DNA from: an uncultured virus (IMG/VR IMGVR_UViG_3300030098_006004)
Taxonomy: Duplodnaviria > Heunggongvirae > Uroviricota > Caudoviricetes
IMG/VR virus record: IMGVR_UViG_3300030098_006004
DNA: 20,000 bases
Strand: one strand, 5' to 3'
Shown piece after piece: positions 163 to 18,500 of the stretch. Both the position numbers and the translations under genes were made by a program. Every line of letters begins with the position of its first letter. Within the stretch, counting starts at the first letter, position 1. A model generated the notes under the pieces. The model had not been told where the DNA came from, made no database searches, and saw only the letters and a program-made list of their open reading frames with translations.

Positions 163-170
163 TAAATAGT
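163..170 (-). promoter_or_regulatory. ACTATTTA putative phage late-promoter motif
   Basis: Same or near-identical motif at 2258-2265 and 9687-9694, each in a short intergenic gap directly upstream of a gene. Confidence 0.5.
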
Positions 171-1018
171 TACATACAACTCAAATACCTTTCTCCTCTA
201 TCACAAAGAAAGGTTACCACCACTCCGGTGGGGTTATTTTTTTCTATCCAGCGCTCTGCTGCGAGCACATTAGCTCCTGAACTAATACCTACGAGCAATC
301 CATTTTCTTTTGCTAACTGACAGGCTCTTTGTTTGGCGTCCTCTGTGGATACTAAAAGCTCTTCGTCAATAATCTTTTTATCCACTAGAAAGTCATCGCC
401 GTCATTAATTCCTTGAATGCCGTGGCTTGCTGCGTCTTCGGCAGGCATTGTCAAGAGGAACTTAGTTTCTTTCCATAGGCGAGACAAGTGGCGTTGGCAA
501 CCCATAATAGTGCCGCCAGTGCCTGCACCTGATACAAGAGCAGATAAGCGCGTAGGCATATCTAATATTGCTTGCCCGATCTCTACTGCTGTAGTTTTCT
601 CGTGACATTCAATATTGTAAGGGTTGCTAAATTGTCTTGGTGACCAGTAAGTTCCAAAGTTATGGACTAACTGATCTCTTTGTTCAATCGCGTCTTTAAA
701 AGCATTGTCGCCTACTTCAATAATACGAGCCCCGAAGCGCCGCATCATTTGCTTGCGCTCTTCGCTCATATTGCGCGGCATAACAATAATACAGCCGTAT
801 CCTTTGGCTGCTGCGAGCATAGCAAAGGCGATGCCTGTGTTGCCTGACGAAGCTTCTACAATAGTATAGCCTTCTCGCAAATCGCCGTTTTCTTCGGCTT
901 TTTGGAGAATGTAAGCAGCCATCCTGTCTTTAATAGAGCCAGATGGATTGTATGCTTCAAACTTAGCGTAAAGTTTATCGCTCAACTTTACAAGAGGCGT
1001 GTTACCTATAAGGTTCAT
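170..1018 (-). CDS. cysK: Cysteine synthase / O-acetylserine sulfhydrylase (PLP-dependent CysK/CysM family), phage auxiliary metabolic gene
   Basis: IGNTPLV, KFEAYNPSGSIKDR (PLP lysine), EASSGNTG, GAGTGGT, GIQGI, GISSGAN, CDRGERYLS motifs. CysK versus CysM cannot be resolved by eye. Confidence 0.93.
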   Translation of the reverse strand: MNLIGNTPLVKLSDKLYAKFEAYNPSGSIKDRMAAYILQKAEENGDLREGYTIVEASSGNTGIAFAMLAAAKGYGCIIVMPRNMSEERKQMMRRFGARIIEVGDNAFKDAIEQRDQLVHNFGTYWSPRQFSNPYNIECHEKTTAVEIGQAILDMPTRLSALVSGAGTGGTIMGCQRHLSRLWKETKFLLTMPAEDAASHGIQGINDGDDFLVDKKIIDEELLVSTEDAKQRACQLAKENGLLVGISSGANVLAAERWIEKNNPTGVVVTFLCDRGERYLSCM

Positions 1019-1019
1019 T

Positions 1020-1319
1020 TTATTCCTTATCTTCGTTCATTGTCTTGGTGTAGCTTAATAGCTCTTCGTCGCCTGCGGCGTGAGCTAGGGCAACCATAAT
1101 ATCTCTAATTCCATCGGCACCCAAAATGCTAAACATAGCGTCAGTCGCCTCTTCAGGATTATCGCGAATAACTTGAACTACTTTTTCTTTCGGCTCTTTA
1201 TCTTTACGTCCCATAGCCAAGAGACGGTCGAGTTCCCTATCGGAGATATCAATTTCTGACAAGGCTCTTTGGACTTCTTCGGTAATAATCTTGTTTAAAT
1301 GTTGTTTAGTTATCTTCAT
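1020..1319 (-). CDS. Hypothetical protein with N-terminal MKITKQHLNKIITEE leader (possible virion internal protein)
   Basis: 99-aa ORF packed between its neighbours; leader shared with the upstream gene. Confidence 0.8.
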   Translation of the reverse strand: MKITKQHLNKIITEEVQRALSEIDISDRELDRLLAMGRKDKEPKEKVVQVIRDNPEEATDAMFSILGADGIRDIMVALAHAAGDEELLSYTKTMNEDKE

Positions 1320-1322
1320 TTT

Positions 1323-2126
1323 TTAATCACGAATTGAATCTATGTAATCAATAGGGACAGTGATTTTTTTTACAAGACCTTTTCGTTCCAGCTTTGCAAG
1401 TATTTCCTTGTTTTGCAGCGCCTCTTTCAATATTTCTTTAGGGCTTTTAGATAATTGTATATCAACCAACATGTATTGCTCCTCGTCGGGATCGACGGTG
1501 TTTACCGACTTGACGCCACGGGGTCCAATTCTCGCAATCCACTCTCCTTTTACATTTTTTCTAATGTATTTGGTTAATCCCAAGCCGCTGGCTAGTTTGC
1601 CTACGTTTGCGTTCACTATCTCTGTACGCGGATCTGCGCCATATCCTGATCGGGGTTTAAAGTCTTTACCGGGCTTTTTCAGTGCGATAGCTTCTTCCAG
1701 CGCCTCGGAAGGCTTCTCTGTTTTTAGATGTTCATAATATTCTGGATCTAGATCATAGAACTCTGTGTATTTGCTTTGGACTTGATCAAAAGTCAAACCA
1801 TCTTTAATAGCTTTTTTAAGTATGTCTTCTCTTCTTTTTACATTCTGGTAGTAGCGAGAGCCTGCTTCAGAATCTTCCAAGGCTTCTTTGACAACTTTCT
1901 CAACTTCTTCTTTGATGATTTCTTTAAGTCTTTGTTCTGTGATTTTCATTTTATTTTCCTTTGATTTCGGTCGGATCCACCCGGCATCTTCTAATTTTTT
2001 AAAAAGAAACATCTTGGCGTCAGAGGAGATTAATCGGCGGCTGAACCAATTATCCAGTTCCTCTTGAGGTGATCCTTCGTATTGTTCGTTGATAATTTCT
2101 TTAAGTCTTGTTTTCGTGATTTTCAT
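1323..2126 (-). CDS. Hypothetical protein with two tandem MKIT leaders (MKITKTRLKEIINEQ ... MKITEQRLKEIIKEE); likely start ATG 2126, possible internal start at 1949
   Basis: The track start (2147) overlaps the Cys-peptide gene. ATG 2126 begins the shared leader. The second leader at 1949 is preceded by AAGGAAAATAAA. Confidence 0.8.
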   Translation of the reverse strand: MKITKTRLKEIINEQYEGSPQEELDNWFSRRLISSDAKMFLFKKLEDAGWIRPKSKENKMKITEQRLKEIIKEEVEKVVKEALEDSEAGSRYYQNVKRREDILKKAIKDGLTFDQVQSKYTEFYDLDPEYYEHLKTEKPSEALEEAIALKKPGKDFKPRSGYGADPRTEIVNANVGKLASGLGLTKYIRKNVKGEWIARIGPRGVKSVNTVDPDEEQYMLVDIQLSKSPKEILKEALQNKEILAKLERKGLVKKITVPIDYIDSIRD

Positions 2127-2137: not shown

Positions 2138-2233
2138 TTAGCAGCAAGCGCAGTTAGTGCAGCCGCAGGTCTCGCAACAGCAGCAGCAGTGCTCGCGAAA
2201 TAGATTTCTTAGTCTGTGTAAAAATTTCTTCAT
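2138..2233 (-). CDS. Cysteine-rich micro-protein, 31 aa, MKKFLHRLRNLFREHCCCCCETCGCTNCACC (metallothionein-like C-terminus)
   Basis: Manual translation: ATG at 2233, TAA at 2138-2140, AGGGAG SD 8 nt upstream. Fills the intergenic gap; 10 Cys in the last 16 residues; too short for the ORF track. Confidence 0.8.
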   Translation of the reverse strand: MKKFLHRLRNLFREHCCCCCETCGCTNCACC

Positions 2234-2257
2234 TTTAGTTACTCCCTAAATATATAT

Positions 2258-2265
2258 TAATTAGT
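2258..2265 (-). promoter_or_regulatory. ACTAATTA putative late-promoter motif upstream of the Cys-peptide operon
   Basis: One-base variant of ACTATTTA at 163-170 and 9687-9694. Confidence 0.45.
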
Positions 2266-3115
2266 CATCCGACTTGGGGATGCCATTAAATTCTCTATAT
2301 TTAAGTAGTCTTTCACTTGGTCTTTTGATTTTTTTAGCGACACCATTTATAACATCGCAATATGTTTCCCAATCTTTTATCTCTTGTGCCTCGGGAATGT
2401 CTGCTTTATTATAATCACCAAGTTCCAAATATCCAAAGATTTGCTCTAAGGAAGCATCCCTGATAGAAGGAATGTTTGAGAGACATTGATGTCTTACTTC
2501 TTTTACCTGCTCCCAAGACAAGGTAAACGCCCAAGGCTTATTATTTAGTACAGTCTCGCCCTCAAACTCCAAAAAAAAGTTCTTTTTTGAAGAAATTAAT
2601 CTTCTGTGTTCTCGCAAAAACCCTATGTTATAGATTCCAAAGGGAAAACTGAAATAAAACATATCTGGCTTTAACCAACGACTAATGTTCCTTGTGATTT
2701 TATGGCAGGTGAAAGCTCCGTGAAGAGAAGCCCACCCCATTGAGTCTTTGTGGTTTCTATCGTGGACAGAAATAGGGACATAATAGATAGGAATAGGTTT
2801 TTGTCGGAGGGTTTTATCGTAGAGAAAGTCATCAAAGTGGCGATAAAGCATAACAGGGTCTTGGACATAATCTCCAAGGCGTTTCCTTATAAGAGGCTCT
2901 ATATCGTCGCTACAGACAATCCATATTGTTTCGCACCCAGCATACGCACATTCCATTACGGAGCGTTCTACGGCTAAATAGTTAGGGGCTATGGGCATCA
3001 TGACATCCGACCAAGGCATATTGAAATCAAGCGGTGGATGTGAAGCCGGGATAACTCCCGCCAAATGGAAGTTAGGTCCTGGCTGCGAGGATCTCTTCTG
3101 TACTTCTACCGTCAA
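2261..3115 (-). CDS. Nucleotidyltransferase-like protein (sugar-phosphate NTP-transferase fold, degenerate signature)
   Basis: LAGVIPA...MMPIAPNYLAVERSVMECAYAGCETIWIVC resembles the RmlA/GalU N-terminus but lacks GxGTR; start uncertain. Confidence 0.55.
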   Translation of the reverse strand: MTVEVQKRSSQPGPNFHLAGVIPASHPPLDFNMPWSDVMMPIAPNYLAVERSVMECAYAGCETIWIVCSDDIEPLIRKRLGDYVQDPVMLYRHFDDFLYDKTLRQKPIPIYYVPISVHDRNHKDSMGWASLHGAFTCHKITRNISRWLKPDMFYFSFPFGIYNIGFLREHRRLISSKKNFFLEFEGETVLNNKPWAFTLSWEQVKEVRHQCLSNIPSIRDASLEQIFGYLELGDYNKADIPEAQEIKDWETYCDVINGVAKKIKRPSERLLKYREFNGIPKSDD

Positions 3116-12172: not shown

Positions 12173-13009
12173 TTATTTTTGAATAAAAGAAGCGTAGGAC
12201 AATGAATAGACATAATCATCATCGTAATTTGTAGGAAAGATTTTGTAAGAAACGCTTGTGTTTTCATCTGAAAATTGGCTTACTTGTTGCTTAATCTTCC
12301 TGAAAAGGCTTCCGTCCTTCTCTAAACTTTCTTTGTTAATCGCATAAAAGATTGTCTTGTCTCTTGGGTTCTCCAAGTCAAAGAAAAGGTTCTCTTGCGA
12401 TGTTTCAAGGTCTAGCATACCAAATGTGGCTATGCGGCTTGTTGGATGAAGCCCGAAGAAGTTAGTTTCCAAGGGCTTTGTGTTAGAATAAATGTTTGTC
12501 ATGTGGATTGTAGACACAAGCAGGTGATTTAGGTTGTTATAATAGTTCATAATAGGAACATCGCCTAATACTTCCTCTAGCTTTACATTGTCAACAATAA
12601 ACATACGTTCTAAGAGACCTGAACGGGCATATTCCTGTAAAATACCGTATACTGCTCTTTCTTGTAACTTCCTATCGGCTGAAAGCGTGGTTAAATCAGG
12701 CTTTATGTAAAGAACGTGGGGTTTTTTCTTTTTTAGAAGCTCTAATAGTCTCAAAGAACAACCAGATATTGTCCCAGAGCCGCCAATCACTAAGAGCGTG
12801 GGTTTTTTTGTTTTTTTAAGAAACTCTTCTGCTTTCCTTACTGGGAATGAGCTTTCGTATTTCTCATGGGTGGTGCGCTTAGGTATTTTAAGGAAGTTTT
12901 CTTCTTTTCTTGCCTCTGAATCAATATAATAACAATCATACTCAGGGTATTGTGAGAAGAATTTTGTTATGTTGCAGCCTGCGTTACCTAAACCTATGAT
13001 AGTTTCCAT
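12173..13009 (-). CDS. Tubulin/FtsZ-family GTPase (PhuZ/TubZ-like), divergent
   Basis: N-terminal IIGLGNAGCNI, YIDS, GGSGTISG (variant of GGGTGSG), IVDN. Confidence 0.8.
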   Translation of the reverse strand: METIIGLGNAGCNITKFFSQYPEYDCYYIDSEARKEENFLKIPKRTTHEKYESSFPVRKAEEFLKKTKKPTLLVIGGSGTISGCSLRLLELLKKKKPHVLYIKPDLTTLSADRKLQERAVYGILQEYARSGLLERMFIVDNVKLEEVLGDVPIMNYYNNLNHLLVSTIHMTNIYSNTKPLETNFFGLHPTSRIATFGMLDLETSQENLFFDLENPRDKTIFYAINKESLEKDGSLFRKIKQQVSQFSDENTSVSYKIFPTNYDDDYVYSLSYASFIQK

Positions 13010-13015
13010 TTATAC

Positions 13016-14200
13016 CTATAAAATCTTTCTTAATCTGCCGAAGTTCTTGCCTGTGGAGACATTTACTTTAAAATCTCCAAGGTCTGTTTCTTCAAATATG
13101 TTGATTACTTCTTCTAGCGTCTTTCTGTCTTGCCTATTATAATCTAAAACAAGCGAATCGTGAATACAAAAAGCAATCTTTGTCTTTTTTCCTTTAAGTT
13201 TCTTGTGAATCTCAATCATTCTTCGCAAGAAAAGGTCTGAAGAAGTTGATTGGATAATGTAGTTTAGTGCCTTGTCTGTTTGTACTTCTATCTTGCGACC
13301 GAAAGGCGTATGAACGTGCGTGCCATCGTAATGCTTGGCAATTACATCGTCTCTTTTAAATAGTTCTTCAAGTTTTTTGTTGGATGCTTTTGGATTGTAT
13401 AGCCAAGCAAAAACAGCCTTTTTCGTTTCTTCCCTAGTTTTTTGCCCCTTAAAGACGTTTTCATTTATCCAGGTATGAATATCTTCTTTTGGTTGTGAAA
13501 CGCCTGCAAGGGCTAAAAACACCCTTATCTCGGCTGCGTTAAAGTCTAGTTCGATGAAGTCATCGTTGTTAGGGTGAATTACTTGACGATGATCTTTGTC
13601 GAGGGTAAGAATAGGGAAGCTATTTCTTTTTGTGGTAAGGCGTCCTGTGATTGTTCCAAAGATATCATAGTTGATATAGGGCTGAAGATGCTTTAACTTT
13701 CGAGCGAAGTTGCGCGTCTTTATGGCAGACATTCGGTCTTCTAAGCCATAAGGAACAATATTAAGTTTCTGTGTTTTGATTTCTTCAAGGATTTTGGTTA
13801 GATTATAAAGAAAGTCATAGTTGGATGGCTTCTCGTAGTTTTCAAAGACGTGTTCTGAAATTTTATCTTTAAAGAAGCAAAGTTCTTTGAAGTACCTGTC
13901 GGGTATAAGAAGGTCCCGGCAAACATCCCTAGTTTCAATCCTAGCTTGCTTGAATGCAGTGTTGAATGCGGCGAACTTCTTTAATAGAGCGCTCCACTCT
14001 TCTTTTAAATCCTCGGGGCAAAGGTCGTTTAGGCTCTTGCCGTTCGCATAAAGAAAAGCGCATTCCACGTCAGCATCGCCAATAGAAGGCAACCAGCGCC
14101 AAGTTTTGGTAAGATTGTCGAACGAAGGGTCGCGCACAATCTTGCCGTTGAGGCATACAGATACGCACTCCTCTTTGTCATCTAATACTTGAAATAGCAT
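13016..14200 (-). CDS. polA: Family A DNA polymerase, compact (polymerase core without recognisable exonuclease motifs)
   Basis: GTITGRLT, motif A DFNAAEIR, motif B REETKKAVFAWLY, TPFGR, NYIIQSTSSD, motif C IHDS. Confidence 0.85.
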   Translation of the reverse strand: MLFQVLDDKEECVSVCLNGKIVRDPSFDNLTKTWRWLPSIGDADVECAFLYANGKSLNDLCPEDLKEEWSALLKKFAAFNTAFKQARIETRDVCRDLLIPDRYFKELCFFKDKISEHVFENYEKPSNYDFLYNLTKILEEIKTQKLNIVPYGLEDRMSAIKTRNFARKLKHLQPYINYDIFGTITGRLTTKRNSFPILTLDKDHRQVIHPNNDDFIELDFNAAEIRVFLALAGVSQPKEDIHTWINENVFKGQKTREETKKAVFAWLYNPKASNKKLEELFKRDDVIAKHYDGTHVHTPFGRKIEVQTDKALNYIIQSTSSDLFLRRMIEIHKKLKGKKTKIAFCIHDSLVLDYNRQDRKTLEEVINIFEETDLGDFKVNVSTGKNFGRLRKIL

Positions 14201-15543: not shown

Positions 15544-18500
15544 TGTTTAAATACCTAAAAGAGTTCTGTCCAGGCTGACGTCGCTTTTCCGATGCCTGAT
15601 ATCCCTTCCATAGCTTGTTGAGCTGCTGCTGCTGCTGCTTGTTCTGGCGTNNNNNNNNNNTAGGTTTTGGTTTTTTACCTTTTCCTGCGCCTAGCTTTTT
15701 GTCCCTAGCATTTTCAGGAGAAGTATACGGCACCCCTTTGTCTTTTATCTCTTCTGTTGGAGCTGGATAGAACGGTCGTTTATTGTCCCCTTTCTTGGCA
15801 ACACCTGTCTTGATGCCCTCAAGGACAGTCTCATATACTCCTGGTCCAATTCTGGTTTCTACAGAAGCAACATAAAAATAGCCGCCGAGTCCTGTATCCT
15901 TAATAACATTTATACCTGCATTGTCTTTTTTCCTGCCAGTTTGACCAATCATGGTTCCCATTGTGGGATCAACAAAAAAAGTATGACCTGGATCGAACAG
16001 CGAGTTTCCTATCATTGTTAAAGAACAGTTAAACAATCGAGGGATAAAAGCCGTTGCTTGTGGATTCACTGCTGAAATTCCTTCTAAAAGCAGAGCTTCG
16101 GTTTGATGTGGCAATTCTTCTGATTTGAAAGATACATTTTTAACCAATCCTTTTCCTGCTCCAAAATAAAAATGATGTATGTTATCTTGAAGATCAGATT
16201 TTCTGTCGTAAGATTGTCTAGTTAGACCTCTAGATCCTAAAAAGACATATTTATAATGCGGTCTCTTGCTTATATCTTTAGAGTTAGCCTTGATATTTGT
16301 TTCAAACTGTTGCATTCTAGCTTTGAAGGTATTTTTTGTATATGACCTGCCAAGGTCGCGTTTCTTACCCTTGAAACCAGACAGTTTCCATATTCCTCCA
16401 GTACCATCTCCCTTTTTATCTTTTTTACTAAAAGAAGGCATACTGAACAATACAGTTTGAGGAGTAGTTCTTTGTATATCTACTTGCCCTACAAAACAAT
16501 CTGAGTTGAAATAATCTCTTAAGATGCTTTTTAAAAGACCTTGAATAAAGTTGTATCTAGTCATTTTATACGCCTGTGGGGAGACTAGCTTTTCTACAAT
16601 ATAATTTGAAAAATGAGATAAAGTCAATGGAATATCAGCAATGTTTATAGAATAGAGAACTTGATTTTCTCCTTTGACGATAGGAACAAGAACAGTTCCT
16701 AAGATATAGTTGAGTTTTTCAGTGGGTCCCAGATCGTCCTCAACACCGATGTTTCCAGCAAAAAACTTATATGATTTAAAAGACTCTCTAAACACTGCCT
16801 GTACAAGATCTCCAAAATAAACAAAATGAATTGGCCAAACATCTTTTGAAGTATCAAAGCCTGCGCCGTGGCTTTTCAAAGCTTCAGTGGCGTTCTTTTT
16901 GATTGTACTGCTCATTTTCGATACTTTTTTAGACTTTTCAAACTCATCTCTTAACTTTTGAATTTCTTTTTTTATTTCCTCTTCGGTCTTTTTTTCAAGT
17001 GTTAACTTTATCCTCAGTTGACCAATCTTAAGTTTAAGTTGTTCTTCGTCTACATTTGCGTTGTTTTCTTTGACTCCTTTGCTAATACCTCCTTTGACTT
17101 TGCTCAAAGTTGTTGCTTTCGAGCCGACGCCTCTTTGAACAGTCCTGGGCGAGTCTCTAAGCATATTAATATCTCTTGTTGGAGACCATTTTAAAACATT
17201 TCCATCGGAGCGGGCTCCGAGAAATGCCTTGGGAACGGCGCAAGTATAAATATTTCTGTCCTCGTCAAAAATTGATGATAGAAAGTCAGAAAGTTGATGA
17301 CGCACGTAATCATCATACTGATTTGCTTTAGCATACAAAACTTCCCTTTTTATAATTTCTTTAAAATTGGCAAGATCTGAGGTTTGTCTTCTGGTCAATA
17401 CTTTACCAGAGTTTTGCAGTTGCTCTAACTTGCGAAGTTTTTCCACGTTGGTCTTTAGTGTCTGGTTTTGATCTAAAGATTCTTTGCCTGCTATTTGAGC
17501 TTGACCAGCGGCAGGAAAAAGTTTATTTTTTGGATTTACCTCTAAAGACCTTTCTATGCCGTAATATCTTGCTATTAACTCTACTTGACCTTCATTTGTG
17601 AAATTAAACTCAGAATCATAAGGATTCAAAACATAAGATTTAAATAAAGATTGTTCATTTAAGTTTTTAAAAAACTTTGAATCTTGTTCGTTAAGTTTTT
17701 TGATATCTTCGGGGGTTGTCCATCCAACCTCAAGAATAACATTGGCAGATTCTTCTGACATGGATATAACTTGAAGAAAATCAGTATTTTTAGTATTAAT
17801 AGGAAATACTAGTTCTGCGTAAGAAGCAGGTATTCTTTTTAATTTTTCTTTGTCATTAGAGCCAGCCAGCGAGGCATATTTAGGGTCAACTCCATAAGGA
17901 AAAGACACCTTTCCTTTCGGATCGAAAGAAGGAAAGTTTAAAAATATCTCCTGTAATGTATTGAATATAAAAGTAATTTCTACTTCAGTTGTATGCGGGG
18001 TATCAAAGTCTTTATCTCCACTGTGTGCTTTGTAGACAATTTCTTTAATACCAGCCCCCATAGAACGACCACCTCCCGCTTGGAGCATGGTTTGTAATGT
18101 AGATGTGTTTGTGTGGGTGCTAAATGGACCTTCAACTTCTACTGTATAAGTTTCAAACATTTTCGAGTTAGCTTTTCTAGTTTTTCTTTCTTTATAAAGT
18201 TTGATTCTAGGTTGCATCATCGCCAATTGATGTGGCTGGATATTCAGCATCCTATTGATAGTTCTAGGTTTGTAGCCTATCAGATTAAAAATATTTGTGT
18301 TTGGACCTGTTATCCTTAGAAATTCATAATTTTTTATATCTTTAGAGCCAAAAGAATGGTGATAGTTTTCAAACTCATCAATCAAGTTCAACATGAAACA
18401 TTGCATGTTTTTTCTTATTTGTTTGGCAACATTTTTGCTTTTAGCTACTCCAGATGATTTGGCATCTACTTTATCATTCTCTTTTTGAGCATTATCAACT

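Follow-up and report, generated by a model that had tools for sequence, protein, structure and literature searches.

A conserved cysteine-rich microprotein gene, of predicted metal-binding kind, in an uncultured T4-like myophage lineage

The window analysed here, a 20,000-nucleotide stretch from an uncultured virus of the class Caudoviricetes, is phage DNA and encodes a gp32-like SSB, a RecA-like protein, DnaB, a class II RNR and GroES. Within an apparent intergenic gap, the initial annotation had proposed a very short cysteine-rich gene, and the Shine–Dalgarno (SD) sequence and clean stop codon described there are both present on the minus strand. The features of the locus are listed in Table 1.

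Table 1. Features at the microprotein locus of the window
Feature	Coordinates	Strand	Basis
Poly-Cys microprotein gene, 31 aa, MKKFLHRLRNLFREHCCCCCETCGCTNCACC, TAA stop	2138..2233	-	ORF translation and family conservation
Residues 1-14, amphipathic helix, candidate docking/targeting tag	2192..2233	-	Conserved L5, H6, L8, N10, L11, F12
Residues 15-31, His + CCCCC + CxxC/CxC/CC domain, candidate metal-thiolate site	2141..2191	-	Cys conservation, composition
Shine–Dalgarno AGGGAG, at -14 to -9, 8 nt 5' of ATG	2242..2247	-	Sequence
CTAATTA, candidate late-promoter motif	2258..2264	-	25-31 nt 5' of the ORF; overlaps the upstream ORF stop codon
284-aa lineage gene, function not assigned, 5' neighbour	2261..3115	-	Adjoins the small ORF only in the window's clade
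Next gene, 267 aa, ATG 11 nt past the small-ORF stop	1323..2126	-	MKITK..EII.E leader at start
Second leader-bearing gene, 99 aa, MKITKQHLNKIITEE	1020..1319	-	ORF list
Cysteine-synthase-like PLP enzyme	170..1018	-	Pfam PALP; near the small ORF only in the window clade

The 16 C-terminal residues of the window peptide hold 10 cysteines, exactly as originally counted; when the window was shuffled 300 times with dinucleotides approximately preserved, no stop-free run of 16 codons held more than seven. The ORF is also richer in GC than its surroundings, as had been noted: its GC content is 46.9% overall and 62.5% over the Cys part, where the 100-nt flanks have 34% and 29%. Its N-terminus had been described as an amphipathic segment of 14 residues; the amphipathicity stands (hydrophobic moment of residues 1-13 of 0.81, shuffle p=0.012), whereas the length does not, the first cysteine being preceded by 15 residues that include His15. 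AlphaFold2 places a helix at residues 2-12, with low confidence (mean pLDDT 61).

The small ORF belongs to a family of 51 distinct coding sequences specifying 50 peptides, 31 or 33 residues long in 40 cases and mostly 31-34, with the consensus MKxxLH[KR]LxNLFNxxHCCCCCGCCxCxxCxxxC. A search with the upstream neighbour gene led to two syntenic copies, one of them with an in-frame 6-nt indel. The pattern MK...HCCCC, which does not demand the helix, matched at least 118 viral loci; among the matches listed, 44 were in frame, 43 of them with the helix, and one of the 44 (L241) was removed as a non-member. As a cross-check against search bias, a helix-only DNA pattern was used, and tails of 7-11 Cys followed at 11 of 11 metagenome loci. 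Nine further family proteins were found in databases, and phmmer with family representatives gave one match. The M, the K and, for most members, the His-Cys4 segment were fixed by the search patterns and are partly conserved by construction. Three matches of a Cys-pattern scan were rejected as antisense artefacts.

Both halves of the microprotein are under purifying selection. The pN/pS ratio is 0.27 overall, 0.28 in the helix and 0.26 in the Cys domain (1275 pairs, with pS saturated at 0.80), and the window gene differs from its relative L093 by seven synonymous changes and no non-synonymous one. An SD-like motif precedes 49 of the 51 members, the other five frames are open in no more than 10, and both TGC and TGT are used in the Cys columns. 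The homologue search that the initial annotation had proposed has therefore returned relatives with conserved cysteines, synonymous change and a retained frame, and the window ORF is confirmed as a real, conserved phage protein-coding gene. Ten cysteines occur in 40 members and 11 in eight, within a range of 7-11; since L008 and L095 carry just 7-8, the ligand count is not strict. His6 and His15 are each kept in 49 of 51 members, His15 being partly set by the search pattern. In one genome, a tandem partial copy (L479, G026:145199-145246, minus strand) lies directly before the intact gene; a deletion has removed the greater part of its helix, and its reading frame is not kept beyond CCCCCGCC.

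The family, whose members keep frame, SD and cysteines, is as unannotated as had been claimed for the single gene. NCBIfam models matched none of the 50 members at E<=1 and PDB entries none at E<=10, tests that short low-complexity queries weaken; with the same weakness, Pfam returned a sole match, PAXNEB at E 0.1 for four members. No match to the family was obtained in PHROGs, no usable one in the ESM Atlas, and none among viral structures with Foldseek, queried with the low-confidence model. No family member was detected by tblastn against cultured phages, and a GTDB pattern scan gave none among the at least 120 loci listed. Six locus-derived sequences, including that of the window, were looked up in a collection of 15 billion proteins and none was present. 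In effect, with no family model and no such entries, the family is largely invisible to annotation.

Two close relatives, G002 (158.6 kb) and G003 (185.5 kb, 100% complete by CheckV), served as genome stand-ins for the window. G003 carries T4-like myophage head genes (Portal_T4, Peptidase_S77 and Gp23), and the nearest cultured capsid proteins, those of Flavobacterium phage immuto and Microcystis phage Mel-JY01, are about 48% identical. A capsid protein of one lineage occurs in 17 of 18 large carrier records, with aligned stretches 53-81% identical to that of G003; it was not seen in the carrier G017 (81% complete). Judged from these proteins, the large carriers checked appear to share membership of one uncultured T4-like myophage lineage. 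Since homologues of the upstream neighbour gene come from Tara, among other sources, a marine origin of the lineage is probable. MopE-type repeats and a KamA-like enzyme in G003 presumably hint at a myxobacterial host. ARAGORN found no tRNA-Cys in G002 or G003.

The microprotein gene is accessory, because few records selected by the neighbour gene carry it: a member was present in 3 of 50 such records (out of 78), including one of the two that are at least 90% complete, and in G070 and G063 there is not a single small ORF that is both Cys-rich and SD-led. It is also mobile, having moved among at least 31 upstream contexts, this being the minimum number of different contexts among 47 loci. The small ORF lay behind the 284-aa gene at none of 78 more distant loci of that gene. 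Close relatives almost all differ in the gene set behind the small ORF, a pattern that resembles cassette shuffling.

In the window, the proteins encoded at 1323-2126 and 1020-1319 on the minus strand are unrelated, yet both start with an MKITK..L..II.EE leader; the former has a second in-frame MKITK-type leader from position 1949, and no Cys. Outside the window clade, the next gene bears a leader (MKITK..IIKEE, MKxLxENW or IDPRYFLNE) at 15 of 26 loci, against a background of 9 of 871 ordinary genes and 6 of 16 leader genes; with another filter, the proportion is 20 of 36 loci. In G003, proteins that start with such leaders have SAM-lyase, zeta-toxin-like and kinase domains, which fits injected cargo. 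The co-location of the microprotein with leader genes may nevertheless reflect shared cassette shuffling and late transcription, not a shared destination. Two database proteins, P0137 and P0142, were rejected as fusions of the microprotein to leader proteins: both junctions show Gln at the point where sister entries start or stop, a sign that the gene caller may have translated stop codons as Gln. A leader-bearing domain with a CPxATQD motif and further cysteines (L481:1624-2082, plus strand, and homologues) was seen in 12 of 25 records, frequently in the vicinity of iscU and the small ORF; the G003 version is embedded in a 655-aa SAM-lyase-domain protein.

The motif CTA[AT]TTA occurs 50 times in G003, 46 of them on the coding strand, and it precedes the gp25 baseplate gene and the gene before gp23. 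From this placement we infer a putative late promoter of the lineage. The motif lies within 60 nt of 19 of the 51 family members and, outside the window clade, accompanies 9 of 41 members versus 20 of 226 G003 genes (p=0.025). The window copy may be partly incidental, as it overlaps the upstream stop codon. Among the contigs of four RNA runs, none spanned the small ORF.

The tentatively preferred reading, to which we give slightly less than an even chance, is that of a late accessory microprotein working like a small metallothionein in this uncultured T4-like myophage lineage. The microprotein would be made late, alongside the products of the leader-bearing genes, and its Cys domain, in the reducing cytoplasm, would hold several thiophilic ions, whether Zn, Cu or Cd, in a thiolate cluster. 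Such a cluster would buffer metal and oxidant stress in late infection. The helix could act as a protein-docking tag that loads the peptide into the prohead, where it would shield packaged DNA or bring metal and thiols to the next host; given the metallothionein-like reading, this loading step is less certain, with a chance somewhat short of even.

Composition makes a metal or thiol function plausible. Metallothioneins are described as proteins of low molecular weight that are very rich in cysteine (PMC7387436), and the Cys content of the family (median over 51 members 32% of the whole peptide and 59% of the Cys domain) fits that description. As far as that source characterises SmtA, MymT and PflQ2 MT, the likeness covers low molecular weight, a Cys share of about one third, CxC, CxxC and CC motifs with His, and the near-absence of aromatics in the Cys domain, where the 51 members have Tyr twice and neither Phe nor Trp. 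Compared with these bacterial proteins, the microprotein has its own traits: the CCCCC run, the conserved amphipathic helix, a length of 31-34 residues, its place in phages and its apparently late expression. The remark that its Cys spacing is unlike that of SmtA is borne out, no metallothionein model having matched and none containing a match to the CCCCC run. Additionally, no metal-responsive regulator, such as one of SmtB type, was seen among the window proteins or the 103 of 113 neighbour proteins scanned. Because the profile and regulator tests failed, the microprotein is not filed in SmtA/BmtA or MymT.

A single case suggests that the Cys domain is able to stand alone. The complete genome G093 has no full family member and encodes a helix-less 22-aa peptide, MSNSNNCKCCKCCTCECENCCD, with nine cysteines and an SD (L487:5289-5357, plus strand), an indication that the working part is the Cys domain. 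The gene for this peptide is flanked by a phosphomannomutase-like gene and by tmRNA, with iscA-iscU downstream, and shares the position directly before tmRNA with five family members. A different small ORF of 49 aa, Cys/His-rich and SD-led, with a metallothionein-like look and no Pfam match, lies directly 5' of iscU at another locus (L523:5834-5983, plus strand).

An unlikely but more specific reading makes the peptide virion-packaged cargo, carrying metal or Fe-S: an uncut helical address tag would put many copies into the prohead, for delivery of metal or sulfur, or of a thiol shield, to the next host. The internal proteins of phage T4 are described as diverse, with the capsid targeting sequence (CTS) as their only common element (PMC3012670), and the T4 protease as cutting after L/I-X-E, Asp at the site stopping cutting while targeting is unaffected (PMC9026906). 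In so far as these descriptions reach, the lineage resembles T4 in having diverse accessory genes with a short common N-terminal tag, alongside a T4-like portal, an S77 prohead protease and gp23. The microprotein helix has only the hydrophobic 8/11/12 register in common with the lineage leaders and mostly no Glu, and the window peptide reads F-R-E where the T4 site is L/I-X-E.

The helix has hydrophobic positions 8, 11 and 12 in common with both leader classes of the lineage, and, when scored with the peptide profile, the leaders rank above control amphipathic N-termini (p=7e-9 and 1e-3). In the reverse comparison, 38-40% of such controls do as well as the peptide helix on the leader profiles. 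By sequence the helix appears only weakly like the lineage leaders. The leaders' invariant Glu14 is kept in just 9 of 51 members, with Asp in 11 and Ser in 18, and a Glu cleavage site is not a trait of the family. The conservation of His6, Asn10 (46 of 51 members) and Asn13 (36 of 51) on the polar face suggests that this face meets a defined partner protein rather than lipid.

It is improbable that the peptide is instead an Fe-S carrier or store, a phage analogue of giant-virus GciS that takes clusters from IscU/IscA and then stores or delivers them. Three of the 18 carriers encode IscU, in each case no farther than about 2 kb from the small ORF, and the helix-less peptide is a short way 5' of iscA-iscU, so that a link between the small ORF and IscU is hinted at. 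However, IscU was not seen in the other 15 carrier genomes, and the linked cases probably represent one ancestral neighbourhood, not independent events, because they have another neighbour gene in common. Within the retrieved DNA, a full member was found at none of 80 viral iscU loci, most of which belong to other phage groups. The precedent is GciS (R633b) of Megavirinae, described as a low-molecular-weight, Gly/Cys-rich protein that is the most abundant in the virion and binds Fe-S clusters (PMC12499515). In that account, GciS is likewise a small Cys-rich viral protein whose role is not known and offers a case of a virion-abundant metal-cluster protein; it differs in belonging to a eukaryotic giant virus and in its Gly/Cys composition, and is likened here by description, not by sequence. 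Fe-S binding and virion abundance were measured for GciS (PMC12499515), and are hypothesised for the microprotein.

The cysteines might also serve without any metal, as an antioxidant thiol buffer or as a post-lysis intermolecular disulfide network that stabilises the particle, which we consider just as improbable. Five adjacent cysteines presumably cannot all face one ion, 41 of the 51 members have an even count of cysteines, and late timing together with a variable Cys number (7-11) suits a non-stoichiometric role. The conserved His15 and His6 suit metal ligation instead, with the reservation that His15 is partly pattern-fixed, and the window's leader-bearing neighbours, being free of Cys, offer nothing to link to.

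With a still smaller probability, the helix is a membrane-surface anchor that holds the thiol or metal cluster at the inner membrane late in infection, the peptide not being packaged. The hydrophobic moment of residues 1-13 is significant in 43 of 51 members, net charge runs from +1 to +4, and the helix resembles what we take to be typical bacterial membrane-targeting helices. The specifically conserved polar face described above speaks against lipid as the partner.

The initial annotation had also raised a leader/core precursor peptide, in which the Cys-rich core of a RiPP would be made into azoles, thioethers or lanthionines. The design is indeed in two parts, a conserved N-terminal segment and a Cys/Ser/Thr-rich tail, and thiazole/oxazole-modified microcin precursors have cores that open with a Cys run. 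Phage-encoded modifying enzymes give this suggestion no support, and it is now very improbable: none of the 18 carrier records, the 8 near-complete ones included, shows YcaO, radical SAM enzymes occur in only 4 of 18, each at least 29 kb from the small ORF and KamA-like in G003, and no lanthipeptide enzyme was detected in 148 G003 proteins scanned. Moreover, a Gly-Gly site is present in none of the 51 members, and NCBIfam precursor models gave no match.

Least credible, and scarcely tenable, is a Cys-sensing translational attenuator for the downstream cysteine synthase, for which mycobacteria offer a precedent (10.1101/834739) and the window offers five consecutive Cys codons at the probable transcript head, 1.1 kb 5' of the cysteine-synthase-like gene: 5 of 8 near-complete carriers lack cysteine synthase, in G004, G014 and G030 it is 78-87 kb distant, no conserved cysteine-pathway operon follows the ORF, upstream contexts vary as noted, RNA folding is unremarkable (median z-score 0.05), no RBS-sequestering structure was found, the downstream RBS is 92% unpaired in the window, though less than 40% unpaired at 10 of 42 loci, the next start overlaps or abuts the small-ORF stop at 18 of 42 loci, and the helix is under protein-level selection. 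The likeness to Ms5788A-type polycysteine attenuators, as that source presents them, is confined to consecutive Cys codons 5' of a cysteine-metabolism gene in the window clade; by comparison, the microprotein is SD-led and conserved as a protein, its downstream gene varies and no RBS-sequestering duplex was found. The link between cysteine synthase and the small ORF was rejected as clade-specific. The G003 orthologue of the enzyme gave a cysKM match below the cut-off.

The microproteins constitute a real, undescribed phage family of small, Cys-rich, predicted metal-binding proteins of 31-34 residues. A literature search on viral or phage metallothioneins, with subscription journals mostly outside its reach, found no paper and no such microprotein family. 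Published catalogues of small phage genes could list the family in supplementary tables. Because a 31-residue peptide can be synthesised, its metal preference is directly testable. If metal is bound, metallothionein-type chemistry would extend to phages, with a new pentacysteine motif. If the peptide is packaged, phage heads would ferry metal or reduced sulfur from host to host, a matter of relevance to the trace metal that viruses hold in seawater, and the peptide would provide a minimal cargo for testing the candidate head-targeting leaders of the lineage. Should the cargo reading be true, the family would represent both a tailed-phage counterpart of GciS and a phage metallothionein-like protein of new architecture.

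Several other genes of the window and its relatives were observed. A 278-aa protein encoded at 12173-13009 on the minus strand, which we take to be FtsZ/tubulin-like, starts with IIGLGNAGCNI and contains a GGSGTISG motif; the searches of Pfam, PHROGs and NCBIfam, which also covered an orthologue, gave no informative match. Next to it, at 13016-14200 on the same strand, lies a gene for a protein that is like family A polymerases but short, at 394 aa; a DnaE-type polymerase seems to be encoded as well in G003, of the same lineage. Near position 15690, a run of N inside a 1477-aa ORF (XXXX) is an assembly gap. In G003, a gene for ribosomal protein bS21 (L219:7124-7342, plus strand) is the second after the prohead protease, on the same strand.
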